Shown: positions 11,623 to 29,996 of the stretch, one piece after another
How positions within the stretch are numbered: the stretch's first letter is position 1
Layout of the letters: each line of letters opens with the position of its first letter
From: Acidimicrobiia bacterium
Lineage (GTDB): Bacteria > Actinomycetota > Acidimicrobiia > Spongiisociales > UBA5794
Reading direction: 5' to 3'
Assembly (NCBI GenBank): GCA_030064765.1
Contig: JASJEG010000002.1
Coordinates: 1 to 57,016 of the forward strand
DNA length: 57,016 nt
The notes under the pieces: model-generated
What the model was told of the DNA's origin: nothing
Database searches by the model: none
What the model saw: the letters and a program-made list of their open reading frames with translations, nothing else
Made by a program: the position numbers and the translations under genes

Positions 11623-11644
11623 ACGAATCCCTGGTGTCGGGCGC

Positions 11645-12334: not shown

Positions 12335-12385
12335 TGGGAAACAAAAACAGGCTCTGAGCGGGGACTTACCGCTATTTGGGAGGTG

Positions 12386-12404
12386 CCTTAAGTCTCGCCT
12401 AAGT
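12386..12404 (+). promoter_or_regulatory. Candidate SARP box upstream of paralog 1 (TTAAGT-n5-CTAAGT, 11-bp period)
   Basis: CCTTAAGTctcgCCTAAGT, about 70 nt upstream of GTG 12473. The same element occurs at the same distance upstream of paralogs 2 and 3. Confidence 0.55.
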
Positions 12405-12472
12405 CCGGTCGGCAATTCTCGCCCCACCAACCGGCACCGGTGTCGAATAGGGTGACGCAGGAAGGAGAGGGA

Positions 12473-15400
12473 GTGCAGTACCGACTGCTTGGTAAGTTTG
12501 AAGTGGAGCGCAACGGCGAGCTCGTTGATATCGGCTCGTTCCGACAGAGAGCGGCGCTCGCCTTCCTGCTGAAAACGCCCAACACGATTGTCTCCACCGA
12601 TCAGATAATCGACGCAGTCTGGGGGGATGACGCTGCGGCGGATCGCCAGAACGCGCTGTGGGTCCACATCTCGGGATTGCGCACCGCTCTGGAGCCCGAC
12701 AGGGAGAGGCGAACGGAGGGCAGCGTCCTGCTCACTCGATCCCCGGGCTATCTCCTTCAAGTGAATCCGGATGAGATCGACACGGTCCACTTCGAACGGC
12801 TCGTTGCAGAAGGTCGTGCCCTACTCGATGCCGATCCGGCTGCCGCCTCATTGGCACTTGGCGAGGCGCTAGCTCTGTGGCGAGGCCGCGCCTATGAAGA
12901 CTTCGCCTACGAGGACTTTGCCGCCTCTGAGATCGCCCGACTCGAGGAACTGCGGCTCGAAGCGGTCGAAGCCCGCATCGATGCCGACCTCCGGCGGGGG
13001 ATGTCCCGAGAGTTGGTCTCTGAGCTCGAGAGCCTGGTGCGGGAGCATCCACTTCGGGAACGGCTCACGGGGCAGGCCATGCTGGCGCTGTACCGATCGG
13101 GCCGGCAGGCAGAAGCGCTTCGCTCATACCAGTTCTTGAAGGCGCGACTCGGTGACGAACTTGGAATCGAGCCATCGGCTCAGATCCGCAAACTCGAGGA
13201 ACAGATCGTCGTCGGCGATCCGGAGCTCGAGCCCGCCACAACGCTACATCTTCCCGGGACCGGTCCGGAACCGGGTCTGGCGGTGCGTGGCTATGAGCTG
13301 CGCGAGAAGTTGGGTGAGGGCGCGTTCGGAGTCGTCTATCGGGCGTATCAGCCGGTCGTAGGTCGTGAGGTTGCCATCAAGGTGATCCGGCCCGAACTTG
13401 CCAACGACCCTGTCTTCATCCGCAGGTTCGAGGGCGAAGCTCAGCTGGTGGCGCGGCTGGAGCATCCCCACATCGTTCCGCTGTACGACTATTGGCGGGA
13501 GCCGGGAGCGGCTTACCTGGTGCTGCGATTGATGGGTCGTGGCAGTCTTCGCGACGTAGTGGAGTCCACTGCGCTGAGCAGCGACGAGGCAGTGCGCATA
13601 GTCCAGCAGATAGCCGGAGCGCTCGAGACCGCACATCGGTCTGGTGTGGCCCACGGCGATATCAAGCCGGAGAACATCCTCCTCGATGGCGAGGGCAACG
13701 CATTCCTCTCGGACTTCGCAATCGCCGTCGGCGGGAGGCGACACAGCGGCACTGACGCAGGCGGTGCTGCTGAGCCGCCCTACGCAGCGCCGGAGCACGT
13801 CGCTGACGGCGGCGCCTCTCCGGCCGGAGATATCTACAGTCTTGGTGTCGTCCTCGCCCAGGCCCTGACGGGGTTGGAGGGAGAGCTTGCCCAGATACGC
13901 GGAGCGCTGCCGCAGGGCTTGGCCCAAGTCATCGATCAGGCCACAGATGCCGATCCCCGTGCTCGCTACGCCTATCCCGGAGCGTTTGCGGACGCCGTTG
14001 TCGAAGAGCTGGCAGGTGCCGACCACGTCGCGCCAGAGGAGGCGGCGGCGCTCGTGGAGGCGGAGAATCCCTACAACGGTCTACGTCCTTTCTCCCAGGT
14101 CGATGCGTCCCGCTTCTATGGCCGAGGCCGGGTGATCGATCGTCTCGTCACCAGGCTCGGTGAGCCCGGTTCGCGTGGCCGGTTTGTTGCTGTGGTAGGG
14201 CCGAGTGGAAGTGGCAAGTCGAGCGTCGTAAGGGCTGGTCTGCTCCCTGCGCTGAGCAAAGGGGCCTTACCTAGTTCCGACATGTGGTTCGTTGCTGAGC
14301 TGACCCCGGCGCCCCATCCGTTCGAGGAACTCGACAATGCTCTGACCGGGATTGCTGTCGATCCTTCGACGACTCTTCTCGAACAGCTTGCATCCGAGCC
14401 GACCGGCTTGCGCCGTGCTGTCCGGCAGCTGCTTCCCGAGGGATCGCAGTTGCTGCTGGTCATCGATCAGTTCGAGGAACTCTTCACGCAGGTCGACCAA
14501 GAAACCGCAGACCGATTCATCGATTCTCTGGTCGATGCCGTCACCGGCGAGCATTCGAACATACGTATCGTTGTGACTCTGCGGGCTGATTTCTATGACC
14601 GACCGCTGCGGCATCGCACGCTCGGGGAGCTGCTGCGCGAGGGCACAGAGGTCATCACTCCGATGTCGCCCGAGGAACTGGAGCGCGCCATCACCGCTCC
14701 GGCGGGTGCAGTTGGGGTGACCTTTGAGCCTGCGGTCGTGGCAGAGCTGATTCGCGAGGTCGCTGATCGAATCGGCGCACTGCCATTGCTGCAGTACACC
14801 TTGACCGAGTTGTTCGATGGTCGGAGCTCGGCAGCGATTCCACTTTCCGACTATCAAGCCGTGGGCGGGATTTCGGGGGCGCTGGTGCGGCGGGCCGAAG
14901 GCCTCCTTGCCGGACTGGGCTCACAGGCTCAGGACGCCACCCGCCAGTTGTTCTTGCGTCTGGTGACGCTCGGGGAAGGCACTGAAGATACGCGGCGGCG
15001 CGTACTGCTCGCTGAGTTGCGCGATCTCCCTGTGGATCCACAGGATCTGGATCAGGTTCTCGATACGTTTGGTCGTCATCGGATGATCAGCTTCGACCGT
15101 GATCCCATTACTCGAGGACCCACGGCTGAGATCTCTCACGAGGCGTTGCTGATCCAATGGACCAGGCTCCACAACTGGATTGATGGAGCCAGACATGATG
15201 TGCGCAACCAGCGTCGGCTCGCCCAGGCGATGGCAGAGTGGCAGGGCGTCAACCGAGCGGACGACTATCTCTTGCGCGGCGGCCGTTTGGATCAGCTGTC
15301 TGGGTGGGCAGCGACCACTTCGGTTCCATTGAGTGTCCCGGAGCGAGAGTTCCTCACTGCCAGCTTGGAGGAACGGGACAGAGTTGAGCGCGAGCAACGA

Positions 15401-17389
15401 GAACGCGAGGAGCGCGCTGCCGAGGCGGAGCGGTCCGCCAAGCAACGGCTGCGGCTCCTCAGCGTTGTGGGTGGTGCTGCAGTCATCGTGGCACTGCTCG
15501 CGGTCTTCGCCTTTGTGCAGCGTCAAGCGGCTCGCGACTCAGAGGCTGAGGCCGTGGCGGCGGAGGCCGAGGCCATTGTGGCTCGCGATCGTGCCGTGGC
15601 AGCCGAGGAAGAGGCGCGGGCAGCCGAGGATGAAGCCCGTGCGGCCGAAGCCACCGTCGAGCAGTCGCGGCGCTCCCTGGCACTGGCCAGCGAAGCCAAC
15701 CGTTCGCTCGATGAAGACCCGGCGCTTTCGCTGTTGCTCGCTATCGAAGCGGCTCGGGCCACCGCCTCGAGTGGTTTCGCCACGCCCGAGGCAGTCGATT
15801 CGCTGCACTGGGCTCTCCATGCCAATGGGGTCGTGTACCCGGCCGACGCTTCGACCCCGGTGGCGGTTCGCGGCGGTCCGCAAGGAGTCACCGGAGTGTT
15901 CGCCCTCCCGCCCTCCGAGTTGACCGCGGTTGCGGCGGCTGCGACAGAACGCACATTCTCTGAGGCAGACTGCCTGAGGTTCTTCCCAGGCGAGCCGTGT
16001 CCGGATCCGTCGGTTCCTTTGCCCGCAGGGCTTGGCATCTTTGGTGGTGATGAAGCTTACGGTGTGACCGCCAACGGGCCGGGGGCCTTGGATGGGACGA
16101 GTGTTTCCCTTGCTGCGCCTTTCGACACCAGCGATCAGGACAAGGGTCTGGTCGGGGAGCTCGAGAGATTTGAGGAGCAGTCGGGCGTCAGCGTTTCGTT
16201 TATTCCAACGGCTACCGAAGCTGAAATCAGTCGTCGTAGAGCAGACGGGGACCCGCTGCCCGACCTAGGGGTATGGCCTCAGCCGGGGGCCCTAGTGACC
16301 GGCGCCGGAGACGGCTACGTGCTTGCTCTGTCCAGCTACCTGAATCAAGACGACCTTCACGCCACGTACGGCGAGTATCTGAGCAGCCTGGTGACCGTGG
16401 GCGTCGATGGCGAATGGCCGGCGGCGACCGGCGAGTTGTATGGGGTTCCTGTCGACGTTGACGTCAAGGGCCTCGTGTACTACCCGCGGGCAGCCTTTGA
16501 GCGAGCCGGGTACTCCGAGCCGGAAACGTGGGACGAGTTGATGGCCTTGTCTCGTCAGATGGTGGAGGATGGCACAACGCCCTGGTGTGTGGCCTTTGAG
16601 TCTGAAGTAGCGAGTGGCTGGCCCGGTACCGACTGGATCGAGAGCCTCGTGCTACGGGCCAACAACGATCTCTCGGTCTACGAGGATTGGAGCCTCCATA
16701 GGATTGCGTTCAATGATCCGCGTGTTACCGCTGCCACTGAGCTGGTCGACGACGTCATGTCAACGCCTGGGTTCATACGCGGCGGCAGGGGAGCGATCAG
16801 CAGGCTCAATTTCATTGTTCACGGACTTCTTCCGATGCTCGGTGACCAACCAGAATGCTGGTTCCACCACCAGGCTGACTTCATGCTGAGCACGGTTCCC
16901 GTTGACACTGAGCTGGGCAGCGAACTCGATTTCTTCGTGCTTCCTCCGGTTGACCCTGACCGACCGACCCCCATAAGCGGCGGCGGTGGCGTGCTGGGTG
17001 TCATGGCTGATCGGCCGGAAGTCCGGGCGTTTGTCCAATATGCCGCATCCCCCGAGTGGGGCGAGGTGTGGGCTGCGGATGCCACCGCCAACTTCTTGTC
17101 ACCGAGTCTTCTGTTTGACGTTTCCGCCTATGGAACGGAGGCCAACGAGTCCGAGCGCGCCGCAAGAGTCGCTCTGGGGACGGTGGCAAGAGATGCGATC
17201 GCAGCCGGGGTGTGGCGGTTCGACGCCAGCGACTTGATGCCGGCGGAAATCGGCGCCGCGACGAGCGAGGGCGCCGGCGCCTTCTGGCGAGGCATGCTCG
17301 ACTACGTCGACGGGGTCCGCACCATGGGCCAGGTCCTCTCCGACATCGATGCGGCCTGGGTGGCACTCGAGGAAGCAGACGGGGGCTAG
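12473..17389 (+). CDS. Giant membrane-spanning regulator, paralog 1: SARP wHTH + BTAD / Ser-Thr kinase / STAND P-loop NTPase / TM helix / extracytoplasmic family-1 solute-binding domain
   Basis: Start GTG 12473 after ggaaggagaggga, homologous to the ATG of paralogs 2 and 3. SARP/BTAD ~12473-13213 (ALWVHISGLRTALEP, SPGYLLQV, ALALWRGRAYEDF, AMLALYRSGRQAEAL). Kinase ~13289-14014 (GEGAFGVVY, VAIKVI, HGDIKPEN 13652-75, DFA 13712-20, APE). NTPase from ~14060 (NPYNGLRPF, GPSGSGKSS 14198-, LLLVIDQFEELF, LRADFYDRPL, PLLQYTLTELF). TM 15455-15517. SBP-like domain ~16080-17386 (KGLVYYPRAAFERAGY, TWDELMALSRQMVEDGTTPWCVAFES, GWPGTDWIESL). Confidence 0.9.
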   Translation: MQYRLLGKFEVERNGELVDIGSFRQRAALAFLLKTPNTIVSTDQIIDAVWGDDAAADRQNALWVHISGLRTALEPDRERRTEGSVLLTRSPGYLLQVNPDEIDTVHFERLVAEGRALLDADPAAASLALGEALALWRGRAYEDFAYEDFAASEIARLEELRLEAVEARIDADLRRGMSRELVSELESLVREHPLRERLTGQAMLALYRSGRQAEALRSYQFLKARLGDELGIEPSAQIRKLEEQIVVGDPELEPATTLHLPGTGPEPGLAVRGYELREKLGEGAFGVVYRAYQPVVGREVAIKVIRPELANDPVFIRRFEGEAQLVARLEHPHIVPLYDYWREPGAAYLVLRLMGRGSLRDVVESTALSSDEAVRIVQQIAGALETAHRSGVAHGDIKPENILLDGEGNAFLSDFAIAVGGRRHSGTDAGGAAEPPYAAPEHVADGGASPAGDIYSLGVVLAQALTGLEGELAQIRGALPQGLAQVIDQATDADPRARYAYPGAFADAVVEELAGADHVAPEEAAALVEAENPYNGLRPFSQVDASRFYGRGRVIDRLVTRLGEPGSRGRFVAVVGPSGSGKSSVVRAGLLPALSKGALPSSDMWFVAELTPAPHPFEELDNALTGIAVDPSTTLLEQLASEPTGLRRAVRQLLPEGSQLLLVIDQFEELFTQVDQETADRFIDSLVDAVTGEHSNIRIVVTLRADFYDRPLRHRTLGELLREGTEVITPMSPEELERAITAPAGAVGVTFEPAVVAELIREVADRIGALPLLQYTLTELFDGRSSAAIPLSDYQAVGGISGALVRRAEGLLAGLGSQAQDATRQLFLRLVTLGEGTEDTRRRVLLAELRDLPVDPQDLDQVLDTFGRHRMISFDRDPITRGPTAEISHEALLIQWTRLHNWIDGARHDVRNQRRLAQAMAEWQGVNRADDYLLRGGRLDQLSGWAATTSVPLSVPEREFLTASLEERDRVEREQREREERAAEAERSAKQRLRLLSVVGGAAVIVALLAVFAFVQRQAARDSEAEAVAAEAEAIVARDRAVAAEEEARAAEDEARAAEATVEQSRRSLALASEANRSLDEDPALSLLLAIEAARATASSGFATPEAVDSLHWALHANGVVYPADASTPVAVRGGPQGVTGVFALPPSELTAVAAAATERTFSEADCLRFFPGEPCPDPSVPLPAGLGIFGGDEAYGVTANGPGALDGTSVSLAAPFDTSDQDKGLVGELERFEEQSGVSVSFIPTATEAEISRRRADGDPLPDLGVWPQPGALVTGAGDGYVLALSSYLNQDDLHATYGEYLSSLVTVGVDGEWPAATGELYGVPVDVDVKGLVYYPRAAFERAGYSEPETWDELMALSRQMVEDGTTPWCVAFESEVASGWPGTDWIESLVLRANNDLSVYEDWSLHRIAFNDPRVTAATELVDDVMSTPGFIRGGRGAISRLNFIVHGLLPMLGDQPECWFHHQADFMLSTVPVDTELGSELDFFVLPPVDPDRPTPISGGGGVLGVMADRPEVRAFVQYAASPEWGEVWAADATANFLSPSLLFDVSAYGTEANESERAARVALGTVARDAIAAGVWRFDASDLMPAEIGAATSEGAGAFWRGMLDYVDGVRTMGQVLSDIDAAWVALEEADGG
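15455..15517 (+). other. Predicted single transmembrane helix of paralog 1
   Basis: LLSVVGGAAVIVALLAVFAFV (21 hydrophobic aa). It is preceded by ERSAKQRLR (positive-inside) and followed by QRQAARDSEAE. Confidence 0.75.
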
Positions 17390-17391
17390 GA

Positions 17392-17419
17392 GCCGTCCGG
17401 CTCGCGCAGGAACGGAGGG
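17392..17419 (+). repeat. Decayed remnant of the palindromic repeat downstream of paralog 1
   Basis: gccgtccggctcgCGCAgGAACGGAGGG retains the 3' tail (compare copy B ...ACGCAAGAACGGAGGGG), but the 5' stem arm is lost. Confidence 0.3.
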
Positions 17420-17520
17420 ACAACCCTCGAGTGCGCGCTGTTGTGTCATCCGCCGACTCATTGGCTTGGCAACTTGCGTGCGTACCTCTGCCCTGGCGGT
17501 TTTGGCTGGCGCGAACCTCC

Positions 17521-17539
17521 CCTTAAGTTGTTGCTAAGT
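17521..17539 (+). promoter_or_regulatory. Candidate SARP box upstream of paralog 2
   Basis: CCTTAAGTtgttgCTAAGT with 11-bp phasing, about 65 nt upstream of ATG 17604. It is followed by the conserved leader gcATAGGGTTGGAAGAGGGTgcc. Confidence 0.55.
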
Positions 17540-17603
17540 CCGGTAGGTCAAGGTGAGGTACCGAATTCAGGACGGCGCGCATAGGGTTGGAAGAGGGTGC
17601 CAA

Positions 17604-20600
17604 ATGCAGTACCGGGTCTTGGGCAAGTTTGAGGTCAGCCGGGACGGGGTGCCGGTTGATGTCGGTAGCTACCGGCAGAAGTCGTTGCTGGCTTTCCTAC
17701 TGACCACGCCGAACAAGGTCATCTCCACAGATCGGATCATCGATGCGTTGTGGGGCGACGAAACAGCGTCGGATCGTCAGAACGCCCTTTGGGTGCACAT
17801 CTCTGGATTGCGCAAAGCACTCGAGCCAGAACGAGAGAAACGTTCGGAAGGAACCATTCTGCTCACCCGTGCTCCGGGCTACCTCGTCCAGGTCGAGCCC
17901 CACGAGGTCGATGCGCTGCAGTTCGAGCGATTGGCGGCTGAGGGGCGCGCTCTCGCCGACACCGATCCCGCCGCAGCGTCACTCGTGCTCGGCGAGGCGT
18001 TGGCCTTGTGGCAGGGTCGGGCGTACGAGGACTTCACCTATGAGGCCTTTGCGGCAGCGGAGATCGCCCGGCTCGAGGAATTACGGCTGGCGACCGTGGA
18101 GGATCGGATCGATGCCGATCTGCAGCGCGGGATGTCCCGGGAGTTGGTGTCTGAGCTGGAGAGCCTGATCCGCCAATATCCGCTCAGGGAGCGCCTCACC
18201 GGGCAGGCCATGCTTGCGCTCTATCGCTCGGGACGGCAGGCAGAAGCTCTCCGGCTCTACCAGTTTCTCAAGTCTCGGTTGGGTGAGGAGCTAGGAATCG
18301 AGCCTTCCAGCAGGATCTCCAGACTGGAGGAGCAAATTGTGACCGGAGATCCTGCGCTCGAGGCCGCCTCGACCCTGCAACTTCCCGGGTCGGGTCCCGA
18401 GCCGGGTCTTGCAGTTCGCGGCTATGAGCTGCGCGAGCAACTCGGCGAGGGCGGCTCCGGCGTCGTCTACCGGGCGTATCAACCGGTGATGGGGCGCGAG
18501 GTGGCGATCAAGGTCATTCGACCCGAGCTTGCCAATGATCCTGTCTTCATCCGCCGGTTCGAGGCCGAGGCGCAGCTGGTAGCCCGGCTCGAGCACCCTC
18601 ACATCGTCCCGCTCTACGACTACTGGCGCGAGCCGGATGCGGCGTATTTGGCGATGCAGCTGATGGGTCGCGGGAGTCTGCGGGACGTCATCGAGGACAC
18701 CGCTCTGACACACGATGCCGCAGCCAGGGTGGTCGAGCAGATTTCTGGAGCGTTGGCAACAGCACACCGGGCCGGGGTAGCCCATGGAGACATCAAGCCG
18801 GAGAACATCCTCATCGATGGTGCCGGCAACGCCTTTCTTTCAGACTTCGCCATCGCCATCGACGCGAGGCAGCGCGTCGGTACGGGGGGACCGGATCGAA
18901 CCCTGCAAGCCCCTTACGCATCCCCCGAACAGTTGAGTGACGGGGCCGCATCACCGGTGGGAGACATTCACAGCTTGGGCGCTGTGATGGCGCAGGCCCT
19001 AACCGGCCTCGACGCCGCGCCCGCCCAGATACGAGGGGCGCTTCCACCGGCGGTGGCGCGCGTTATCGACAAAGCGACTGACCCTGACCCCGCTTCCAGG
19101 TACGAGGATGTGGCGGCCTTTGCCAGTGATCTATTGAAGGAACTCGTGGGCGACGAGCAGCCTGCGAGGCTCGCCGAGGTTGGCGACGTGGAGAACCCGT
19201 ATCGGGGTCTACGGCCTTTTGAGCAGACCGATGCGGACCAGTTCTACGGCCGCGAACGATTGGTCGAGCGGCTGCTCGCCCATCTTGGCGAGAAGGGCTC
19301 CCGAGGGCGTTTCGTTGCCGTCGTCGGTCCCAGCGGAAGCGGCAAGTCGAGTGTCGTCAAAGCCGGGCTGCTCCCTGCTCTGCGGAAAGGGGCCCTCCCC
19401 GCTTCCGACGAGTGGTTCGTTGTTGACATGACTCCGGCGCCGCATCCGTTCGAGGAACTCGAAGGTGCAATGAGGCGGATTGCAGTCGATCCGCCCCCAA
19501 CTCTGCTCGAGCAGCTGGCCGGAAACGACGCTGGTCTGCGTCGCATCGTCCGGCAGGTGCTTCCGGAGGGGTCGCAGTTGCTGTTGGTTGTTGATCAGTT
19601 CGAGGAGCTCTTCACCCAGGTGGATGAGGACACCGCCGATCGGTTCCTCGATGCTCTGGTTGACGCGGTTACCAATGCCCACTCCAACATCCGCGTGGTC
19701 GCGACGCTGCGAGCCGACTTCTACGATCGCCCGCTCCGGCATCGCGGCCTTGGTGAGCTGCTCCGAGAGGGGACTGAGGTGATCACACCAATGTCACCGG
19801 AGGAGCTGGAGCAAGCGATCACCCGGCCGGCCCACAGTGTTGGAGTGATGTTCGAGCCTGCACTGGTCGCCCAGCTCGTGACTGATGTCGCAGAGCGGCC
19901 CGGGGCGCTTCCGCTGCTGCAGTACACGCTCACGGAGCTGTTCGAGGGCCGTACCTCGCCCACCATTCCGTTGGGCGACTATCACTCCCTGGGGGGTGTC
20001 TCCGGTGCACTGGTGTCCCGAGCCGACGGATTGCTGGCCGGGCTCAGTCCAACTGCGGCCGATGCTGCCCGCGAGGTTCTTTTGCGTCTGGTGACTCTCG
20101 GCGAAGGCGCCGAAGATACGCGACGACGAGTTCTCGTTGCGGAGCTTCGTCAACTGGCGGTCGCGTCGCAAGACCTCGATCGGGTTCTTGATACGTTTGG
20201 GCGTCATCGGTTACTCAGTTTCGATCGCGATCCGGTCACCCGGGGTCCGACCGTTGAGATCTCACACGAGGCGCTGCTGACGCAGTGGATACGGCTGCGG
20301 GATTGGGTCGACGAAGCCCGGCACGATGTTCGCAATCAGCGCCGGCTGGCGCAGGCAATGAACGAATGGGACGCGGCCGGCCGCAGTGCCGACTACCTGC
20401 TGCGCGGCGGTCAGCTCGACCAGCTCGCTGGCTGGGCGGCGGTGACGTCTCTGCCGCTGAGCGACCCGGAGAGCGAGTTCCTCACCGCCAGCATTGTCGA
20501 ACGCGAGAGAGCCGCGAGTGAGCAGCGCGAGCAGGAAGAACGGACAACCGAGGCCGAGCGACGTGCCCGGCAGCGCCTCCGCCTGCTCAGCGTCGTTGGC

Positions 20601-22484
20601 ATCGCTGCCGTAGTTGTTGCGGTGCTGGCGGTATTTGCGTTTGTGCAACGGCAGGCAGCGCGCGACTCGGAAGCCGAGACACAGGTGGCGCTCGACCGCG
20701 CCGTTGTTGCCGAAGGAGAAGCTCGCGTAGCGGAAGAAGAGGCTGCCCGTCTGTTGCGTGCGTCGACCCTGGCGACCAAGGCCAACCTGAATCTCGACGC
20801 AAACCCCGAGTTGTCGCTGCTGCTTGCAGTGGAAGCTGCGCGTACAACGGCCGACTGGGGATTTGTCACGCCCGAGGCGGTCGATGCGCTGCACTGGGCG
20901 CTTCAGGTCAACCAACTTGTATATCCGGCAACGGGTGAGACAAACGTCGCCGTGCGCCCAGGGCCACTCGGTACCGTGGGTGTGTTTGCGCTAGAGCCCG
21001 ATCGGCTCGCCGAGCTGGCTTCCTCGGCAGCTGGGCGCTCGTTCACCGCGGACGAGTGTGCGCAGTACTTTCCCGATAACCCTTGTCCCGATTCGTCGCA
21101 GCCGCTTTCCGCCGGGCTGAGCATTCTTGGCGGCGAACAGGCCTACGGCGTAGTGCCCAACGCGCCCGGGGCGCTGGAAGGCACTTCGATGACGCTGGCG
21201 GGTAGTTGGGCGGAGATGGAAGGGCTGAGCAACGAACTGGAGCATTTCGAGCAGGTGACAAGTATCGACATCGGCTACGAGGATCGGTCTGCTACCCCGG
21301 GGTGGCTTGGCAAGAATGTCGGTGCGGGCAAGAGACTTCCTGAGCTCGCCCAAATGCCGCAACCTGGAGCTGTTGCCTATGCGGCTTTGCAAGGCTGGCT
21401 CATCGACCTCACGTCATATGTCACCCCGGAACGCGTCGCTGACGTTTCGGGAACCTTCCTGGCGTCCCTGGTACGAATCGGCGATAACGGTCAGTGGCCG
21501 GATCCCAGCGGGTCGGTCTACTCAATTCCGGTCGATATCGACGTCAAAGGTCTTGTGTATTACCCCCGTGCCAAGTTCGAGGAGGCCGGGTACCGGGTAC
21601 CCGAGACCTGGAATGAGCTAATGGCTCTTTCCGAGCAGATGGTGGTCGACGGCCATACCCCGTGGTGTGTCGCATTCCAGTCGCCAGGTGGCGCCAGTGG
21701 CTGGCCCGGTACCGACTGGCTCGAGAGTCTGCTCATCCGGGCTGGAGGTATCGACATCTACCAGCAGTGGACGTTGCACCAGATTCCCTTCGATGATCCG
21801 GCCATCGTGGCTGCAGCATCGATGTTCGACGCAGTTGTTGGTGGAGAGGGCTTCGTCCGCGGCGGTCGGGGTCTGATCAGCCAGTTGAACTGGGGTGTCG
21901 AAGTTGTCGACCCTCTTCTGAAGGACGAGCCACAGTGCTGGCTGGCTCTCAGAAGTGACTACCTGCTGGGCTTCATGCCGGCTGGGACGGAGATCGGCGT
22001 CGACGTCGATTTCTTCGAACTGCCGCCCACTGAAGCCGGCGTTGCCGTACCCGCAACCGGCGGTGGCAGTTTCATCGGAGCGACGGTTGATCGTCCGGAG
22101 GTGCGGGCCTTCATTGAACATGCGCTCACTGCTGAATGGGGAGAGGCATGGGCGGCGGCCGCCGATTCGGAGTTCATTTCCCCGAACCTCGAGTTTGACG
22201 TAGATCACTACGGCGCAGATGTCACAGAATCTGAACGCAGAGTACGACGAGCCCTCGGATCCCTTGCCCGCGACCGGCTGGCAGCAGATCTGTGGCGGTT
22301 CGATGCCAGCGACCTGATGCCGCCGGCGATCGGCTCGGCCACGCCTGCCGGACGCGGTGCCTTCTGGCAGGGCATGCTGGATTACGTCGACGGGTTGCGC
22401 ACCATGGATCAAGTGCTCTCCGACATCGAAGCTGCATGGGTGGCGCTCGAGGAGGAAGCCGCCGAGGAGGCCGGCGGGACCTAG
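17604..22484 (+). CDS. Giant membrane-spanning regulator, paralog 2 (same five-module architecture)
   Basis: Start ATG 17604 (MQYRVLGKFEV). The upstream 17 codons of the ORF track lie in the promoter/leader region. The motifs of paralog 1 are conserved: HGDIKPEN, SDFAIA, GPSGSGKSS, LLLVVDQFEELF. TM 20583-20645. SBP-like C-terminus (KGLVYYPRAKFEEAGY, TPWCVAFQS, GWPGTDWLESL). Confidence 0.9.
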   Translation: MQYRVLGKFEVSRDGVPVDVGSYRQKSLLAFLLTTPNKVISTDRIIDALWGDETASDRQNALWVHISGLRKALEPEREKRSEGTILLTRAPGYLVQVEPHEVDALQFERLAAEGRALADTDPAAASLVLGEALALWQGRAYEDFTYEAFAAAEIARLEELRLATVEDRIDADLQRGMSRELVSELESLIRQYPLRERLTGQAMLALYRSGRQAEALRLYQFLKSRLGEELGIEPSSRISRLEEQIVTGDPALEAASTLQLPGSGPEPGLAVRGYELREQLGEGGSGVVYRAYQPVMGREVAIKVIRPELANDPVFIRRFEAEAQLVARLEHPHIVPLYDYWREPDAAYLAMQLMGRGSLRDVIEDTALTHDAAARVVEQISGALATAHRAGVAHGDIKPENILIDGAGNAFLSDFAIAIDARQRVGTGGPDRTLQAPYASPEQLSDGAASPVGDIHSLGAVMAQALTGLDAAPAQIRGALPPAVARVIDKATDPDPASRYEDVAAFASDLLKELVGDEQPARLAEVGDVENPYRGLRPFEQTDADQFYGRERLVERLLAHLGEKGSRGRFVAVVGPSGSGKSSVVKAGLLPALRKGALPASDEWFVVDMTPAPHPFEELEGAMRRIAVDPPPTLLEQLAGNDAGLRRIVRQVLPEGSQLLLVVDQFEELFTQVDEDTADRFLDALVDAVTNAHSNIRVVATLRADFYDRPLRHRGLGELLREGTEVITPMSPEELEQAITRPAHSVGVMFEPALVAQLVTDVAERPGALPLLQYTLTELFEGRTSPTIPLGDYHSLGGVSGALVSRADGLLAGLSPTAADAAREVLLRLVTLGEGAEDTRRRVLVAELRQLAVASQDLDRVLDTFGRHRLLSFDRDPVTRGPTVEISHEALLTQWIRLRDWVDEARHDVRNQRRLAQAMNEWDAAGRSADYLLRGGQLDQLAGWAAVTSLPLSDPESEFLTASIVERERAASEQREQEERTTEAERRARQRLRLLSVVGIAAVVVAVLAVFAFVQRQAARDSEAETQVALDRAVVAEGEARVAEEEAARLLRASTLATKANLNLDANPELSLLLAVEAARTTADWGFVTPEAVDALHWALQVNQLVYPATGETNVAVRPGPLGTVGVFALEPDRLAELASSAAGRSFTADECAQYFPDNPCPDSSQPLSAGLSILGGEQAYGVVPNAPGALEGTSMTLAGSWAEMEGLSNELEHFEQVTSIDIGYEDRSATPGWLGKNVGAGKRLPELAQMPQPGAVAYAALQGWLIDLTSYVTPERVADVSGTFLASLVRIGDNGQWPDPSGSVYSIPVDIDVKGLVYYPRAKFEEAGYRVPETWNELMALSEQMVVDGHTPWCVAFQSPGGASGWPGTDWLESLLIRAGGIDIYQQWTLHQIPFDDPAIVAAASMFDAVVGGEGFVRGGRGLISQLNWGVEVVDPLLKDEPQCWLALRSDYLLGFMPAGTEIGVDVDFFELPPTEAGVAVPATGGGSFIGATVDRPEVRAFIEHALTAEWGEAWAAAADSEFISPNLEFDVDHYGADVTESERRVRRALGSLARDRLAADLWRFDASDLMPPAIGSATPAGRGAFWQGMLDYVDGLRTMDQVLSDIEAAWVALEEEAAEEAGGT
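20583..20645 (+). other. Predicted single transmembrane helix of paralog 2
   Basis: LLSVVGIAAVVVAVLAVFAFV, flanked by RRARQRLR on the N side and QRQAARDSEAE on the C side. Confidence 0.75.
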
Positions 22485-22495
22485 CGCGCCCCGCC

Positions 22496-22556
22496 TTGCC
22501 CATTCCGGCGTAGCTGGCGGCCTATATGAGCCGCCAGTTACGCAAGAACGGAGGGG
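22496..22556 (+). repeat. Palindromic intergenic repeat, copy B
   Basis: ttgcccattccgGCGTAGCTGGCGGCctatatgaGCCGCCAGTTACGCAAGAACGGAGGGG. 14-bp stem (22508-21 / 22530-43, one G:U), starting 12 nt after the paralog 2 stop. Confidence 0.8.
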
Positions 22557-22615
22557 TTCCGGGTTTCTCGTGCAGATCCGTTTCATGGCTGACTCCTCCG
22601 GTCCACCGGCGGTCT

Positions 22616-22634
22616 ACTTAAGTCGTGGCTAAGT
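22616..22634 (+). promoter_or_regulatory. Candidate SARP box upstream of paralog 3
   Basis: ACTTAAGTcgtggCTAAGT with 11-bp phasing, about 67 nt upstream of ATG 22701. The same conserved leader gcATAGGGTTGGAAGAGGGTtcc follows. Confidence 0.55.
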
Positions 22635-22700
22635 CCGATTGTTCAAGGTGGGGACTATCCGAACGAAGACGGACGGCATAGGGTTGGAAGAGGGTTCCAG

Positions 22701-25700
22701 ATGCAGTACCGGGTATTGGGCAAGTTTGAGGTAGGCCGGGATGGGGTGGGGGTCGACGTCGGCACGTACCGGCAGAAGTCGTTGCTGGCGTATCTGCTGA
22801 CTACACCGAACAAGATCGTCTCCACAGACCAGATCATCGACGCGCTATGGGGCGAGGAAGCGGGGGCGGACAAGCAGAACGCGCTGTGGGTCCACATCTC
22901 AGCAGTACGCAAAGCGCTGGAGCCGGCGCGGGAGAAACGCTCCGAGGGGACGATTCTGCTCACCCGGGCGCCCGGCTATCTGCTGCAGGTCGATCCGCAG
23001 GATGTGGACGCCCTGCAGTTCGAACAGATGGCTGCGGAGGGTCGGGCGCTCGCCGACACCGACCCCGCGGCGGCCTCCCTCGTGCTCAGTGAGGCACTGG
23101 CCCTGTGGCGGGGACACGCCTACGAGGAGTTCATGTACGAGGCGTTCGCCTCGGCCGAGATCGCTCGGTTGGAGGAGTTGCGGTTGGAGACAGTCGAGGC
23201 CCGCATCGACGCAGATCTGCGGCGGGGCATGTCGGGCGAGTTGGTGTCAGAGCTGGAGAGCCTGATCCGGCAGTATCCGCTTCGGGAACGGTTCACCGGT
23301 CAAGCGATGCTTGCCCTGTACCGGTCGGGCCGGCAGGCTGAAGCTCTCCGGCAGTACCAGTTCCTCAAGTCCCGGCTGGGTGAGGAGCTGGGCATCGAGC
23401 CGTCATCGCAGATCCGCAAGCTCGAAGAACAGATAGTCACCGGGGACCCAGCGCTCGAGCCGGCAACCACCCTCGCGGTAGCGGGCACAGGACCACAGCC
23501 GGGTCTGGCCGTGCGTGGCTATGAGCTGCGGGACAAACTGGGCGAGGGCGGCTACGGGTTGGTCTATCGGGCCTACCAGCCGACGGTAGGACGCGAGGTC
23601 GCCATCAAGGTGATCCGCCCAGAGTTGGCCAACGACCCCGCCTTCATTCGTCGGTTCGAGGCCGAAGCACAGCTTGTCGCACGGTTGGAGCATCCTCACA
23701 TCGTCCCGCTGTACGACTACTGGCGGGAGCCGGATGCCGCCTACCTGGTCATGCGGCTCATGGGCCGCGGCAGCCTGAGCGACGTCATCGACTCGACCGC
23801 GCTCAGTCCGGAACGGGCAGCAAAGGTCATCCAGCAGATTGCGGGCGCGCTGCACGCTGCCCATCGCAGTGGCGTAGCTCACGGCGACATCAAGCCGCAG
23901 AACATCCTGATCGACAGCGCCGGCAACGCGTTCCTCGGTGACTTTGCGATCGCGCTTGGCGCCGGTGACGGAAAGCCCGGGCGGGTCCTGGATACCCCCT
24001 ACGCCTCGCCCGAGCAGCTGGCGACCAACGAGGCTTCGCCCGCCGGCGACATCTACAGCTTCGCAGTGGCGATAGCTCAGGCACTCACCGGTCTCCGGGG
24101 CGAACCAGCTCAAGTGCTGGGTGCGTTGCCAGGAGCGGTGGCACGAGTCGTCGACAAAGCCACGGATCCGGATCCGGCGGCGAGATACGCCGACATCGAG
24201 GCGTTTGCGCAAGACGCCATTGGCGAACTGGCTGGCGGCGAGGAAGTGCCCGAGCCGGTGGAGCTAGGCGAGGTGGAGAACCCGTACATGGGTCTGCGTC
24301 CCTTTGATCAAACGGACTCGGCGCTGTTCTTCGGCCGCGACCGGCTCGTCACCCGACTGGTGACCCGGCTGGGAGAGCAAGGTCAGCGCAGCCGTATGGT
24401 TGCGGTGGTCGGTCCGAGTGGCAGCGGCAAATCGAGCGTGGTGAAGGCCGGGCTGCTCCCGGCGCTGCGCCAGGGAGCTCTTCCCGGTTCCGATCAGTGG
24501 TTCACGGTTGACATGACGCCGGCACCTCATCCGTTCGAGGAACTCGAGAGCGCACTGACTCGGGTTGCAGTCGATCCGCCACCAACCATGCTCGAACAGC
24601 TTGCCGCCAGCGAGTCCGGGCTGCGTCGGGTCGTCCGCCAGGTGCTGCCCGAGGGATCACAGCTGCTGCTGGTGGTCGATCAGTTTGAAGAGCTCTTTAC
24701 CCAGGTGGGAGAAGACACTGCGGATCGATTCATCGACACGCTCGTGGATACCGTGCGAGATGCTCACAGCAATGTCCGCATCATCATCACGCTGCGCGCC
24801 GACTTCTACGACCGGCCGCTGCGGCATCGGGGTCTGGGGGAGTTGCTGCGGGAGGGCACCGAGGTCATCACACCCATGTCCCCAGAGGAGCTGGAGCAGG
24901 CCATTGCTCGGCCTGCCGCCATGGTGGGTGTTGCGTTCGAACCCTCATTGGTTGCCCAGCTCGTGGCCGACGTGGTTGACCGGCCGGGAGCCCTGCCTCT
25001 GCTGCAATTTACGCTCACCGACCTGTTTGACAACCGCAGCTCGGCGACCATTCCCCTTACCGACTATGAAGCAGTTGGGGGTGTTTCCGGGGCGCTCGTC
25101 TCTCGGGCCGATGGCCTGCTGGCCGGCCTCAGCCCCAACTCCCAGGACGCCGCTCACCAGGTCTTCCTACGACTGGTGACACTGGGCGAAGGCAGCGAGG
25201 ACACCCGACGGCGTGTTCTCGAGGCCGAGCTGCGGCAGCTTTCCGTAGAAAGCAGAGACCTCGACCAGATCCTCGAAGTCTTCGGACGCCACCGGCTGCT
25301 CAGCTTTGATCGTGATCCGATCACCCGGGGACCGACCGTTGAGATCTCGCACGAGGCGCTGCTGACCCAGTGGAAACGCCTCCGTGACTGGATCGACGAA
25401 GCCCGCCACGACGTCGGCAATCAGCGCCGGCTGGCGCAGGCCATGAACGAATGGACCGCAGCCGGCCAGGCCACCGACTACCTGCTGCGGGGCGGTCAGC
25501 TCGATCAGCTCTCCGGCTGGGCGGCGGTGACTTCGCTGCCCTTGAGCGGTCCCGAGGCGAGCTTTCTGGAGTCGAGCCTGGCAGAGCGGGAACGAACCCA
25601 ACGGGAGCAGCGTGAGCAGGAGGAACGCACAACCGAGGCCGAGCGGTCGGCGCGGCAGCGACTGCGCCTGCTCAGCGTCGTCGGCATTGCTGCCGTTGTC

Positions 25701-27578
25701 GTTGCGGTGCTGGCGGTGTTTGCGTTCGTGCAGCGGCAGACGGCTCGGGATTCGGAGGCTGACGCGGTGGCTGCGCAGGCAGAGACGCAGGAGGCTCTAG
25801 ATCGCGCGGTTGTGGCTGAGTCCAAGGCCCTGGCTGCAGAAGCCGTTGTTGAGCGGTCGCGACGTTCCTTGGAACTGGCGAGCGAGGCAAACCGGATGTT
25901 GGATGAGGATCCTGAGCTATCTCTGCTGTTGGCAATTGAGGCGGCACGAGTGACTGTTGAAGACGGGTTTGTCAAGCAGCAGGCCGTCGACGCCCTCCAC
26001 TGGGCGATTCAGAAGAACGCCGTCATCTATCCGGTAGACAACGACGCGCCAGTTGCCGTGCGATCTGGCCCGCTCGGCGTCAGAGGCGTATATGCGATTC
26101 CACCTGCCGAACTTGCAGCGCTTGCGGCAAGCGCCACAGACCGAGCCTTCTCCGAGGGTGAGTGCGCCCAGCTCTTCCCAGGGGAGCCTTGCCCGGATCC
26201 CAGCGTTGCGTTGCCGAACGGACTTACCATCGATGTTGGCGACGAGTCTTACGGTGTCCGGGCGAATGGTCCCGGTGCGCTGGCCGGCACACAGGTCGAG
26301 TTCGTGACGGTTCAGGACATCAGCGTGCTCTACGAGGAATGGAACCGCTTCTGGGGCGATACTGGCATATACGTCTCACACTTGAGTACCGATCCCAGCG
26401 GAGAGATTGGGCGGCGCCAGAGCGAGGGATTCCCGGTTCCGGACGTGGCGCAACTTGCGCAACCAGGCGCCGTTACCGAGTTTGGGCAGGCGGGCCTTGG
26501 ACTCGACCTCTCGTTACTGCTCGAGGAGACGCGGCTAGAGGAGGATTTTGGTCCTTCCCTGATGGAACAGGTGACCGTCACTAGCGATGCCACCCCGTCG
26601 GATGCCGTGTATGGAATACCTCTGCAGGTCAATCTGAAGGGTCTGGTGTTCTATCCGAAGGCGGCCTTTGCAGCGGCGGGCTACGAGCTTCCCGCAACTT
26701 GGGACGAGCTCATGGCGCTATCGCGCCAGATGGTGGCAGATGGCCGCAGCCCGTGGTGTATGGGGTTTGAGTCGGTAGGGCCGCATGGATGGCCCGGCAC
26801 CGATTGGATCGAGAGCCTCGTCATTCGGGAAGCTGGACCGGAGTTCTACGACGATTGGGCGACGCACAGGGTCCCCTTCGATAGCGAAGTCGTGCGATCT
26901 GCTGCGGCCCTGTTTGATGAGTTGGTGTCCACGCCCGGGTTTGTCTGGTTGGGCAAGGAGAAGATCAGCCAGCTCAATGTGTTCTTCGCTCTCATACCGG
27001 AACTCGAGAGAGACGAGCCTGCTTGTTGGCTGTTCCACCAGGGCGACTTCGCGACCGGGTTCCTCAGCGCAGCGACGGAGCTTGGCCGGGACGTTGATTT
27101 CTTCGTGCTGCCACCGATCGATCCGTCCCGACCCACTCCGATTCTCGGGGGTGGTACCTATGCCAGCGCCCTCTCTGATCGACCGGAGGTCCGGGTCTTC
27201 TTGGAGCATCTGGCCTCACCTGAATGGGGCGAATTCCTAGCCAGCCAGCAGGGGTCCGGCTTCATCTCGCCCAACGCCCGCTTTGATACGGATCACTACG
27301 GCGCAGAGGCTAAGGAATCGGAGCGTTCGGTCCGGAGCTATATCGGCCTCGCCACTCGAGATGCGATCGCAGCTGGCGCGTGGCGCTATGACGCCTCCGA
27401 TCTGATGCCGGTAGAGATCGGTCATTACACTGCGGACGGACTGGGAGCCTTCCTACAGGGCATGATGGACTACGTCGACGGTGTGCGCACCATGGACCAG
27501 GTCCTCGCCGATATCGAAGCTGCCTGGGTCGCACTCGAGCAAGAGGAGACCGAGGTCGAGGACGACGACGGGACCTAG
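22701..27578 (+). CDS. Giant membrane-spanning regulator, paralog 3 (same five-module architecture, most divergent sensor domain)
   Basis: 1,625 aa with the same motif order (HGDIKPQN, GDFAIA, GPSGSGKSS, LLLVVDQFEELF). TM 25668-25730. The SBP-like C-terminus (KGLVFYPKAAFAAAGY, SPWCMGFES, GWPGTDWIESL) has a strongly diverged N-lobe. Confidence 0.9.
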   Translation: MQYRVLGKFEVGRDGVGVDVGTYRQKSLLAYLLTTPNKIVSTDQIIDALWGEEAGADKQNALWVHISAVRKALEPAREKRSEGTILLTRAPGYLLQVDPQDVDALQFEQMAAEGRALADTDPAAASLVLSEALALWRGHAYEEFMYEAFASAEIARLEELRLETVEARIDADLRRGMSGELVSELESLIRQYPLRERFTGQAMLALYRSGRQAEALRQYQFLKSRLGEELGIEPSSQIRKLEEQIVTGDPALEPATTLAVAGTGPQPGLAVRGYELRDKLGEGGYGLVYRAYQPTVGREVAIKVIRPELANDPAFIRRFEAEAQLVARLEHPHIVPLYDYWREPDAAYLVMRLMGRGSLSDVIDSTALSPERAAKVIQQIAGALHAAHRSGVAHGDIKPQNILIDSAGNAFLGDFAIALGAGDGKPGRVLDTPYASPEQLATNEASPAGDIYSFAVAIAQALTGLRGEPAQVLGALPGAVARVVDKATDPDPAARYADIEAFAQDAIGELAGGEEVPEPVELGEVENPYMGLRPFDQTDSALFFGRDRLVTRLVTRLGEQGQRSRMVAVVGPSGSGKSSVVKAGLLPALRQGALPGSDQWFTVDMTPAPHPFEELESALTRVAVDPPPTMLEQLAASESGLRRVVRQVLPEGSQLLLVVDQFEELFTQVGEDTADRFIDTLVDTVRDAHSNVRIIITLRADFYDRPLRHRGLGELLREGTEVITPMSPEELEQAIARPAAMVGVAFEPSLVAQLVADVVDRPGALPLLQFTLTDLFDNRSSATIPLTDYEAVGGVSGALVSRADGLLAGLSPNSQDAAHQVFLRLVTLGEGSEDTRRRVLEAELRQLSVESRDLDQILEVFGRHRLLSFDRDPITRGPTVEISHEALLTQWKRLRDWIDEARHDVGNQRRLAQAMNEWTAAGQATDYLLRGGQLDQLSGWAAVTSLPLSGPEASFLESSLAERERTQREQREQEERTTEAERSARQRLRLLSVVGIAAVVVAVLAVFAFVQRQTARDSEADAVAAQAETQEALDRAVVAESKALAAEAVVERSRRSLELASEANRMLDEDPELSLLLAIEAARVTVEDGFVKQQAVDALHWAIQKNAVIYPVDNDAPVAVRSGPLGVRGVYAIPPAELAALAASATDRAFSEGECAQLFPGEPCPDPSVALPNGLTIDVGDESYGVRANGPGALAGTQVEFVTVQDISVLYEEWNRFWGDTGIYVSHLSTDPSGEIGRRQSEGFPVPDVAQLAQPGAVTEFGQAGLGLDLSLLLEETRLEEDFGPSLMEQVTVTSDATPSDAVYGIPLQVNLKGLVFYPKAAFAAAGYELPATWDELMALSRQMVADGRSPWCMGFESVGPHGWPGTDWIESLVIREAGPEFYDDWATHRVPFDSEVVRSAAALFDELVSTPGFVWLGKEKISQLNVFFALIPELERDEPACWLFHQGDFATGFLSAATELGRDVDFFVLPPIDPSRPTPILGGGTYASALSDRPEVRVFLEHLASPEWGEFLASQQGSGFISPNARFDTDHYGAEAKESERSVRSYIGLATRDAIAAGAWRYDASDLMPVEIGHYTADGLGAFLQGMMDYVDGVRTMDQVLADIEAAWVALEQEETEVEDDDGT
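25668..25730 (+). other. Predicted single transmembrane helix of paralog 3
   Basis: LLSVVGIAAVVVAVLAVFAFV, flanked by RSARQRLR and QRQTARDSEAD. Confidence 0.75.
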
Positions 27579-27588
27579 GTGTTCTGGC

Positions 27589-27650
27589 CTTGCCCATTCC
27601 GGCGTAACTGGCGGCATATATGAGCCGCCAGTTACGCAAGAACCGATGGG
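27589..27650 (+). repeat. Palindromic intergenic repeat, copy C
   Basis: cttgcccattccgGCGTAACTGGCGGCatatatgaGCCGCCAGTTACGCAAGAACCGATGGG. Perfect 14-bp stem (27602-15 / 27624-37), 11 nt after the paralog 3 stop. Confidence 0.85.
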
Positions 27651-27727
27651 ACGGTCGCCGAACGGCTTGAGGTGTCGGGTCGATGGCCCCTCGCCGCCAA
27701 CCGGTGGCGGCGGTACGGTTGGCCCTC

Positions 27728-29989: not shown

Positions 29990-29996
29990 AACAGAT

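Follow-up and report, generated by a model that had tools for sequence, protein, structure and literature searches.

Predicted membrane-tethered STAND transcription activators with interchangeable extracellular sensors, encoded in tandem in an Acidimicrobiia genome

STAND or NLR-type nucleoside triphosphatases (NTPases) are known as cytoplasmic sensors, with MalT, AfsR, the Avs proteins and the NLRs of plants and animals as examples, and outside-in signalling in bacteria is credited to histidine kinases, Hanks kinases, anti-sigma factors and ToxR-like proteins. The target of AfsR, the afs box, consists of two 11-bp direct repeats that take one SARP protomer each and overlap the -35 element and spacer, beside a weak -10 element (CACTGT) (PMC10936776). 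Here we analyse a 57,016-nucleotide stretch of DNA from an Acidimicrobiia bacterium (GenBank assembly GCA_030064765.1, contig JASJEG010000002.1, positions 1 to 57,016 of the forward strand; this whole stretch is called the window), in which three tandem genes, A, B and C, each encode in a single polypeptide a SARP DNA-binding part, a Hanks-type kinase, a STAND NTPase, one transmembrane (TM) helix and a C-terminal solute-binding protein (SBP) domain. Our preferred reading, to which we assign a probability of just under 0.6, is that A, B and C are membrane-tethered, ligand-gated STAND transcription activators that regulate their own expression and induce a secreted putative zincin encoded beside them. 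The kind of system is known, both as STAND activators and as membrane-tethered one-component regulators; the use of a STAND protein across a membrane may be a novel principle.

All three open reading frames (ORFs) are intact and lie on the + strand: gene A at 12473-17389 (1,638 amino acids, GTG start with GGAAGGAGAGGGA just before it), gene B at 17604-22484 (1,626 amino acids, ATG start) and gene C at 22701-27578 (1,625 amino acids, ATG start). An earlier note, made from the letters of this DNA, had described three same-strand ORFs with a collinear SARP-kinase-STAND-TM-SBP order; the ORF list and Pfam both agree with it, and every motif that it quoted is found in the translations. Pfam recovers five domains in identical order in A, B and C, every one with a score over its gathering threshold: Trans_reg_C (residues ~25-95 in the numbering of A), BTAD (102-245, E 1e-40 to 1e-44), Pkinase (274-467, E ~1e-39), nSTAND1 (PF20703; 533-930, E 1e-114 to 1e-119, covering profile positions 1-378 of 379) and SBP_bac_1 (1223-1529, E ~1e-14), E-values at which chance is excluded. 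The architecture of A thus runs from a winged helix-turn-helix (wHTH; 25-95) and BTAD (102-245) through the kinase (274-~525), nSTAND1 (533-930) and the TM helix (~991-1013) to a stalk, a juxtamembrane domain and an SBP domain that spans 1223-1529 and beyond, and B and C are built as A is. By sequence, the SARP part (residues 2-257) matches the AfsR structures 8hvr, 8k60 and 8jke (E ~1e-33 for 8hvr and 8k60) and the EmbR structure 2fez (E 3e-26), and the kinase part (residues 264-500) matches PknA and PknB (30-35% alike, E 1e-35). To judge from these profile and sequence matches, A, B and C are bona fide members of the SARP, Hanks kinase, nSTAND1 and SBP_bac_1 domain families.

Membership of a named protein family is a different matter. 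No NCBIfam equivalog scores over its cut-off for A, B or C, so no functional name is transferable; the AfsR model covers residues 2-255 only (E 1e-44, 150-153 bits against a cut-off of 1,430), and Pfam gives no NB-ARC or TPR match in any of the three proteins. The AfsR-like STAND switch that had been proposed for them must therefore be revised, as the NTPase is nSTAND1 and not the AfsR NOD. Overall, A, B and C share 67-69% identity, which rises to 70-85% over the cytoplasmic domains and falls to 48-53% over the SBP part, a pattern of old, diverged paralogues rather than of an assembly duplication. A protein identical to C (P0001) is encoded on a separate 30.6 kb NCBI contig, proteins of the A/B/C type occur on other public contigs as well, and with intact frames seen in other assemblies the ORFs are evidently genuine. 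Both the comparison of paralogues and that of the wider family reveal the SBP sensor as the fastest-evolving part, and that the three paralogues differ mainly there suggests, at the level of sequence, that they have different ligand specificities.

Each protein contains exactly one strongly hydrophobic 19-mer, within residues ~986-1012 (Kyte-Doolittle 2.7-2.9), with a cluster of Arg and Lys on its N-terminal side. In C the helix lies at 25656-25736 (+) (residues ~986-1012, LLSVVGIAAVVVAVLAVFAFV), with RSARQRLR ahead of it; its counterparts span ~15440-15510 in A and ~20570-20640 in B (both +). Exactly one TM segment is found in 119 of 120 homologues, the exception being a truncated fragment. 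Cysteines are distributed very unevenly about this helix in an alignment of 111 full-length homologues, from which all conservation counts were taken: four of them (C1155, C1164, C1353 and C1442 in the numbering of C) are 100% invariant and all follow the helix, the number after the helix is always even (4, 6, 8 or 10), and the ~990 residues before it hold a median of 1. This pattern supports a disulfide-bonded, extracytoplasmic ectodomain; together with the single TM segment and the need for DNA-binding, kinase and NTPase domains to be inside, it supports a predicted Nin-Cout topology in which the N-terminal ~985 residues, with those three domains, are cytoplasmic. The extracellular placement of the C-terminal domain in the earlier note thus stands, on the evidence of the cysteine statistics.

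The same data bear on the possibility that the helix does not span a membrane, which would make these soluble, MalT- or AfsR-like STAND proteins with an SBP-fold sensor, or that the ORFs are assembly chimeras. Cytoplasmic sensors with a periplasmic-binding-protein fold do exist, as in the LacI/GalR type. Nonetheless, the hydrophobicity of the 19-mer and its flanking Arg/Lys cluster, the confinement of invariant, even-numbered cysteines to the region after the helix, the extracytoplasmic character of the SBP_bac_1 family and the recurrence of the architecture in GTDB genomes and in over 100 independent assemblies, drawn from several sources, make this the least probable of all the readings that we weighed.

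We modelled residues 975-1625 of C with AlphaFold2 from a 100-sequence alignment, and obtained a mean predicted local distance difference test (pLDDT) score of 93.7 and a predicted template modelling (pTM) score of 0.88 for the ectodomain. In the model the TM segment runs as one continuous helix into an Ala/Glu-rich stalk of ~50 residues, followed by a small α/β juxtamembrane subdomain and then by a two-lobe domain; the stalk and juxtamembrane stretch contains the peptide …SLELASEANRMLDEDPELSLLLAIEA…. Foldseek matches the two-lobe domain to ~50 sugar SBPs (E ~1e-15, target TM-scores 0.7-0.82), among them AcbH, the Thermus and Pseudomonas glucose-binding proteins, RafE, BxlE and NagB, and the sequences nearest to the part that follows the TM helix are those of AcbH and a xylo-oligosaccharide (XOS)-binding protein. 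The model thus indicates that the core of the ectodomain is a family-1 carbohydrate-type solute-binding (Venus-flytrap) fold. That both the STAND and the SBP domains should be recoverable had been anticipated; profile hidden Markov models (HMMs) find the two of them, and Foldseek finds the SBP fold.

How widespread is this architecture? Among the top matches, it is present in full in more than 110 clusters (90% identity), whose named sources are metagenome-assembled genomes (MAGs) of Acidimicrobiia, Acidimicrobiales or Ilumatobacter and whose NCBI names are 'extracellular solute-binding protein' or 'BTAD domain-containing putative transcriptional regulator'. A search with the ectodomain returned 463 clusters (50% identity) at E<=1e-30, some of which are fragments or other architectures. 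With one genome taken per GTDB species, 326 stretches encode relatives, in MAGs labelled Acidimicrobiia, other Actinomycetota (Nitriliruptorales, Gaiellaceae), Chloroflexota (Anaerolineae, Caldilineaceae) and a few other phyla; MAGs labelled Acidimicrobiia or other Actinomycetota account for most loci, and the Chloroflexota-labelled loci match the cytoplasmic chassis and TM region only. By these sequence searches, A, B and C belong to a large uncharacterised family across Acidimicrobiia, other Actinomycetota and Chloroflexota that is not rare. Literature searches across 8 million papers, the two eLife papers of Kaur and co-workers (2020 and 2021) included, found no description of a SARP-kinase-nSTAND1-TM-SBP (or WD40) architecture, in keeping with the earlier statement that no characterised example was known.

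Many relatives match only residues 1-~1,100 and carry ~700 residues of WD40/β-propeller after the TM helix instead of an SBP. WD40 takes the place of SBP in 36-40 of the 61 relatives scanned, and what the two types have in common outside the membrane is limited to the stalk and the initial juxtamembrane helices (…DPELSLLLA.EA…). As in the SBP type, the cysteine count after the TM helix is even in most of the WD40 type (33 of 37). By these alignments, a shared chassis carries at least two kinds of extracellular sensor that are interchangeable, the SBP and the commoner WD40. The SBP had been thought to replace the TPR sensor of AfsR; since relatives mostly carry WD40, it is rather WD40 that the SBP replaced or with which it alternates.

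This exchange of sensors also weighs on an account in which the SBP is the tethered subunit of an ABC importer and the cytoplasmic part reports on transport, as a 'trans-ceptor'. The SBP_bac_1 fold is that of ABC-importer receptors, and TM-anchored SBPs exist in Gram-positive bacteria. Against this, neither a BPD_transp_1 permease gene nor a sugar ABC ATPase gene was found in the 57 kb window, no such gene is a conserved neighbour in 78 related loci, and the same chassis carries WD40 propellers, which cannot serve a transporter; we consider this account very improbable.

Sensor genes appear to turn over. Tandem pairs occur in five related loci (L005, L007, L013, L034 and L073), and in three others the partner gene described below is separated from the intact copy by remnants of additional sensor paralogues, either frameshifted or truncated (L001 9433-10606, L003 9863-10914 and L009 1727-3136). 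These remnants were at one point candidates for stand-alone SBP ORFs between the small and the big gene, a notion that we rejected in favour of frameshifted paralogues. Tandem and decayed copies together point to repeated duplication and decay, that is, to birth-and-death turnover. As a separate observation, P0165 and P0167 are proteins of ~900 amino acids in which the same SBP-type domain occurs twice in tandem.

Conservation within the family differs sharply between the NTPase and the kinase. The NTPase motifs GPSGSGKSS (Walker A), DQFEE (Walker B) and RADFYDRP are invariant in 111 of 111 members, all of which thereby keep the Walker A Lys and the Walker B Asp and Glu, and the recognition-helix and wing residues of the wHTH are invariant as well. 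The kinase of A, B and C keeps the catalytic residues K303, D396, N401 and D414, with HGD instead of HRD and DFA instead of DFG. Across the family this tetrad is intact in 65 of 111 members, at least one catalytic residue having been lost in the other 46 (41%), and complete SARP-nSTAND1-TM-SBP proteins of ~1,300 amino acids dispense with the kinase altogether (P0191, P0194 and P0169). With the kinase degenerate or absent in so many members, and the NTPase and wHTH invariant, the core signal path is predicted to run from sensor through TM helix and NTPase to SARP. On this comparison the kinase is an optional accessory module whose phosphotransfer activity is only predicted; the built-in kinase of the earlier note is thus present in A, B and C and dispensable in the family at large.

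One might instead view these proteins primarily as receptor Ser/Thr kinases of the PknB/PknD kind, with an SBP sensor, a SARP part that is only autoregulatory and an NTPase that serves as a scaffold. Receptor kinases with extracellular sensors are common in Actinomycetota, and the intact catalytic residues of A, B and C and the similarity of their kinase domains to PknA and PknB would fit such a role. It is, however, difficult to reconcile with the loss of the tetrad in 46 of 111 members whose NTPase and wHTH residues are invariant, with the complete kinase-less variants, with the DFA in place of DFG in A, B and C themselves, and with the 400-residue NTPase that separates kinase from membrane, unlike the juxtamembrane kinases of the PknB type. 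We therefore regard a primary receptor kinase as improbable.

Evidence for the output of A, B and C comes from the DNA upstream of them. Aligning the three upstream regions revealed a common CTTAAGT-N5-CTAAGTC, which amounts to two 11-bp direct repeats with a TAAGT core. It has exactly three exact matches in the 57 kb window, one ahead of each gene, at a distance from the start codon of 84 nt for A, 80 nt for B and 82 nt for C. The gene A box is at 12387-12408 (+) (CTTAAGTCTCG CCTAAGTCCGG; at -84), with a -10-like CAATTC/AATTCT 5-6 nt further on; the gene B box at 17522-17543 (+) (CTTAAGTTGTT GCTAAGTCCGG; at -80) and the gene C box at 22617-22638 (+) (CTTAAGTCGTG GCTAAGTCCGA; at -82) are each followed by a -10-like CAAGGT. 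Nothing above shuffle expectation emerged from a sigma-70 promoter and terminator scan of 11600-27750, nor did any -35/-10 pair, which would fit promoters that depend on an activator and have no -35 element.

The boxes recur in the family. Of the 78 related loci (~1.2 Mb), 9 contain a single TAAGT-N6-TAAGT each, always on the coding strand and 82-93 nt upstream of the homologue, and distant relatives, including those of the WD40 type, have other repeats with the same 11-nt period at the equivalent position (two copies each of TTTCAGCGACC, GTTCCAATCG, GCTGAAAG and CTTCAAGCG). A repeat matching at 7 or more of 8 positions is present at offset 11 in 16 of 38 upstream regions, compared with 0-3 of 38 at the other offsets among 8-14 and 22 and with 3.7% of random regions, and a cAnnnT hexamer (CAAGGT, CAGACT or CAGGCT) is conserved 5-6 nt after the box. 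Moreover, box and recognition helix co-vary: proteins with QNALWV[HY] have TAAGT boxes, and those with RNTLQ[ST]Y have CAAGC, CACGC or GCAAG boxes. The geometry is that of the AfsR afs box, and we take each box to be a putative SARP-binding site and activator-dependent promoter. From its position and co-variation we infer that the SARP module binds the boxes and that the genes are positively autoregulated; as the boxes and recognition helices of A, B and C are near-identical, cross-regulation among the three is likely. The earlier picture of a membrane-tethered, ligand-gated, nucleotide-switch activator is strengthened by these boxes upstream of each gene, with ligand gating still conjectural. 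A copy of the box with two mismatches, CTTCAGTCGTCGCCAAGTC, lies at 28499-28517 (-), inside hypF on the strand opposite to it, and is probably due to chance (1 of 100 shuffles gave 4 matches).

Upstream of gene A, and divergent from it, lies a gene at 11645-12253 (-) for a 202-residue secreted protein with the signal peptide MATYTTSRIITVAVLAIALGAPAQA ahead of a Ser. Neither this partner gene nor the boxes figured in the earlier note. It has 38 homologues, all 'hypothetical' or unnamed. In an alignment the HExxH motif (H113, E114 and H117) is invariant, an equally invariant EHAAE helix (154-158) follows ~40 residues downstream and Cys74 and Cys94 are conserved. Pfam gives no match over threshold for the partner, only weak ones centred on HExxH to SprT-like (the best, E 0.0024), M76, M35 and M78, and CapP is matched weakly at 5e-4. 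An AlphaFold2 model (pLDDT 86.8) has no significant Foldseek match in the PDB, the best being at E 0.23, with weak matches to zincins. By its motifs the partner is a putative secreted zincin metallopeptidase of an unannotated family. In 22 of the 78 related loci, among them loci of the SBP and of the WD40 type, a homologue occupies this divergent upstream position, as one does in L079 (a 73% orthologue and the closest single-copy orthologous locus); the partner is the only conserved neighbour across related loci. In L079 a phage-type integrase gene (7633-8898, -) adjoins the HExxH partner, a hint that partner and sensor gene may be transferred together as an island.

The 219-bp region between the partner and gene A holds a second box, which is inverted and faces the partner at 79 nt from its start (12313-12334, -; GCTAAGTCCCG CTTAAGGCGCC, TAAGT-N6-TAAGG). 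It matches the gene A box at 11 of 14 positions, which 0 of 500 shuffles reach, and of 15 intergenic regions of this kind, 7-8 have an inverted box that reaches significance (<=1 of 500 shuffles). The distance to the small gene is 79-82 nt in the window, L079, L014, L008 and L038, and 59-183 nt in L019, L025 and L041, where start coordinates are provisional; in L008 one near-palindromic site is both the inverted box and the big-gene box. Automated picking of big-gene boxes gave none usable for L016, L013 and L015, of which L016 displays inverted repeat pairs by eye. The single near-palindromic box of L008 (CTTAAGTGCCGCTTAAGT, 2580-2600) may serve both divergent genes. To judge by these sites the partner is probably co-induced with the sensor genes, and it could act as an effector, as a generator of ligand or as a processor of the conserved stalk of the receptor.

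The nature of this partner, and of the NTPase, brings us to the main rival of the activator reading, which concerns the purpose of the machine rather than its parts. Here the same proteins would be surveillance receptors, akin to conflict or innate-immunity systems, whose SBP or WD40 domain senses a non-self or danger molecule (from competitors, phage or a damaged envelope) and whose nSTAND1 triggers a defence through the zincin, the kinase or both, with the sensor caught in an arms race. Such a role would be consistent with the definition of nSTAND1 in predicted counter-invader systems, with sensors that are swapped between SBP and WD40 and evolve faster than any other part, with the birth-and-death dynamics seen in tandem and decayed copies, and with the phage-type integrase beside the module in L079. 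The partner, moreover, is a secreted putative peptidase rather than a catabolic or transport gene, and no sugar-utilisation or ABC permease genes were found nearby in the window or in related loci. What argues the other way is that PADLOC returned generic kinase matches only for A, B and C (PD-T4-6 and Mad6; nothing for the NTPase or the architecture), which indicates that they are not members of a known defence system, and that the Pfam domains of A, B and C include no TIR, caspase, trypsin or EAD adaptor, and so none of the fused effectors listed for conflict systems (for example TIR, caspase and trypsin peptidases) apart from the kinase. The kinase, the only listed effector type present, is itself degenerate or absent in many members; the output is a classical transcription activator under strong purifying selection, and the nearest structures to the SBP are ordinary sugar receptors. 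We judge a surveillance role unlikely, if the most serious competitor.

Under the activator reading, a small extracellular ligand, most likely resembling a mono- or oligosaccharide, would close the SBP, and the stalk and TM helix would pass this change on to the NTPase. The NTPase would then exchange ADP for ATP and oligomerise, as in other STAND proteins, and SARP modules would be set side by side on the 22-bp box that replaces the -35 element and so recruit RNA polymerase, a step that the in silico evidence from the boxes supports. The outcome would be activation of the protein's own promoter, in a positive autoregulatory loop, and of the divergent HExxH gene too. By analogy with AfsK and AfsR, the kinase might tune the NTPase or its oligomerisation by phosphorylation in cis or in trans, and perhaps act on other targets.

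Several points weigh against this scheme. We know of no characterised precedent for signalling from an SBP to a STAND protein through a single TM helix, and nSTAND1 otherwise comes from predicted conflict and immunity systems, which would favour a different biological role. A transcription factor held in the membrane must reach its promoter there, which is feasible, as ToxR and CadC demonstrate, and is here a prediction. The Pfam scores of the SBP are modest (E ~1e-14), and the ligand class proposed for it is accordingly conjectural. As to the boxes, they were found beside the genes themselves only, their CTTAAG core (12387-12392 and equivalents) is palindromic, so that their orientation rests on the flanking bases, and the inverted box that faces the partner lacks a clear -10-like hexamer in the canonical register. 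Finally, every homologue listed derives from a MAG or a metagenome, and support for the scheme is wholly in silico.

A more ambitious version of the activator reading is that A, B and C represent the first transmembrane STAND (NLR-like) receptor, in which an extracellular SBP or WD40 domain drives STAND oligomerisation across one TM helix and thereby assembles SARP modules on the promoter, while the co-induced zincin acts on the source of the ligand or on the receptor stalk. We hold this tentatively, at a little less than even odds. If true, its signalling logic would be distinct from that of two-component, extracytoplasmic function (ECF) sigma, ToxR-like and Hanks-kinase pathways, and it would have a wide distribution among Chloroflexota, uncultured Acidimicrobiia and other Actinomycetota. 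A STAND switch placed between an extracellular receptor and a DNA-binding activator would add a new route of transmembrane signalling, and would reveal how a switch in oligomerisation that depends on nucleotide can be operated by a signal from outside. The exchange of SBP for WD40 and the optional kinase amount to a natural experiment in receptor design, one that bears on the role of phosphorylation in SARP-STAND regulators such as AfsR, and a protein that links an extracellular ligand to transcription in a single chain is a possible chassis for synthetic biosensors. The promoter boxes, the partner gene and the three paralogues offer testable handles on the physiology of abundant uncultured Acidimicrobiia.

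The remainder of the window encodes varied functions. Directly downstream of gene C are the hydrogenase-maturation genes hypF, hypC, hypD and hypE (27683-32469, +); we considered these and other genes of the window as conserved neighbours of the sensors and rejected them, as the 202-residue HExxH gene alone is conserved across loci. Upstream, at 6551-10046 (+), lies the gene for an 872-residue MacB/FtsX-type ABC exporter permease with two FtsX and MacB_PCD domains, preceded by a 290-residue ORF that, judged by position, may be its cognate ATPase; homologues of the permease occur in 7 related loci and are not specifically linked to sensor genes. Other features are the flagellar cap protein FliD (305-2209, +), notable as the product of a flagellar gene in a genome of Acidimicrobiia-like character; a Peptidase_M15_4 (D-Ala-D-Ala carboxypeptidase-like) protein (4964-5761, -); an ORF with HATPase_c and receiver domains, probably a hybrid histidine kinase (32621-34246, +); and an orphan ORF of 1,096 residues (38862-42152, -) with a coding-like GC content at third codon positions (GC3) of 0.75 and no Pfam match at E<=1e-5.

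Among described systems, AfsR of Streptomyces coelicolor and its kinase AfsK resemble A, B and C in several ways: an N-terminal wHTH and BTAD are followed by a STAND NTPase, a Hanks kinase is functionally linked, and the target, which for A, B and C is putative, consists of two 11-bp direct repeats over the -35 element and spacer next to a weak -10. It is likely that they are also alike in that the NTPase gates the SARP part and phosphorylation modulates the NTPase (PMC10936776). AfsR differs in having an NB-ARC-type NOD and TPRs where A, B and C have nSTAND1 (PF20703) and no TPR, and in A, B and C the kinase is in cis, between SARP and NTPase, and a membrane anchor and an extracytoplasmic sensor are added; with equivalog scores about tenfold below the cut-off, they are not members of the AfsR family. 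EmbR and PknH of Mycobacterium tuberculosis likewise place a SARP under a TM Hanks kinase with an extracellular sensor, so that the signal passes from outside through kinase to SARP, but they are two proteins coupled by an FHA domain and have no STAND NTPase, whereas A, B and C are single polypeptides without FHA.

In MalT and GutR, an inducer (of sugar type) and ATP oligomerise a STAND NTPase and thereby activate the DNA-binding domain fused to it. Those proteins are soluble, with a C-terminal LuxR-type HTH and a SUPR or TPR sensor that binds internalised inducer, whereas A, B and C have an N-terminal SARP for DNA binding and a sensor that is predicted to be extracytoplasmic. ToxR, CadC and TcpP share with A, B and C an N-terminal cytoplasmic OmpR-type wHTH, one TM helix and a C-terminal periplasmic sensor, and bind DNA while anchored; they are proteins of ~300-500 amino acids that lack NTPase and kinase, in contrast to the ~900 residues of switch machinery between wHTH and membrane here. 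The resemblance to ToxR and CadC is one of design only, as no homology beyond the wHTH superfamily was detected between them and A, B and C.

The family-1 sugar SBPs (AcbH 3oo6, TtGBP 2b3b, ppGBP 5dvf, RafE, BxlE and the NgcE type) have the same two-lobe fold (TM-score up to 0.82) and the SBP_bac_1 HMM. In A, B and C, by contrast, this domain follows an internal TM helix and stalk, with no signal peptide or lipobox, it is joined by an extra juxtamembrane subdomain of ~140 residues with an invariant Cys-X8-Cys loop, and cognate ABC permease genes were not found in the window or among conserved neighbours. The SARP-kinase-nSTAND1-TM-WD40 relatives in Actinomycetota and Chloroflexota share the chassis (40-50% identity over residues 1-~1,100), the single TM helix, the 11-bp boxes and often the HExxH partner, and differ in the extracellular WD40/β-propeller of ~700 amino acids that replaces the SBP. 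Taken together, these comparisons indicate that A, B and C resemble a hybrid of AfsR/AfsK, MalT and ToxR/CadC and are members of none of these three.

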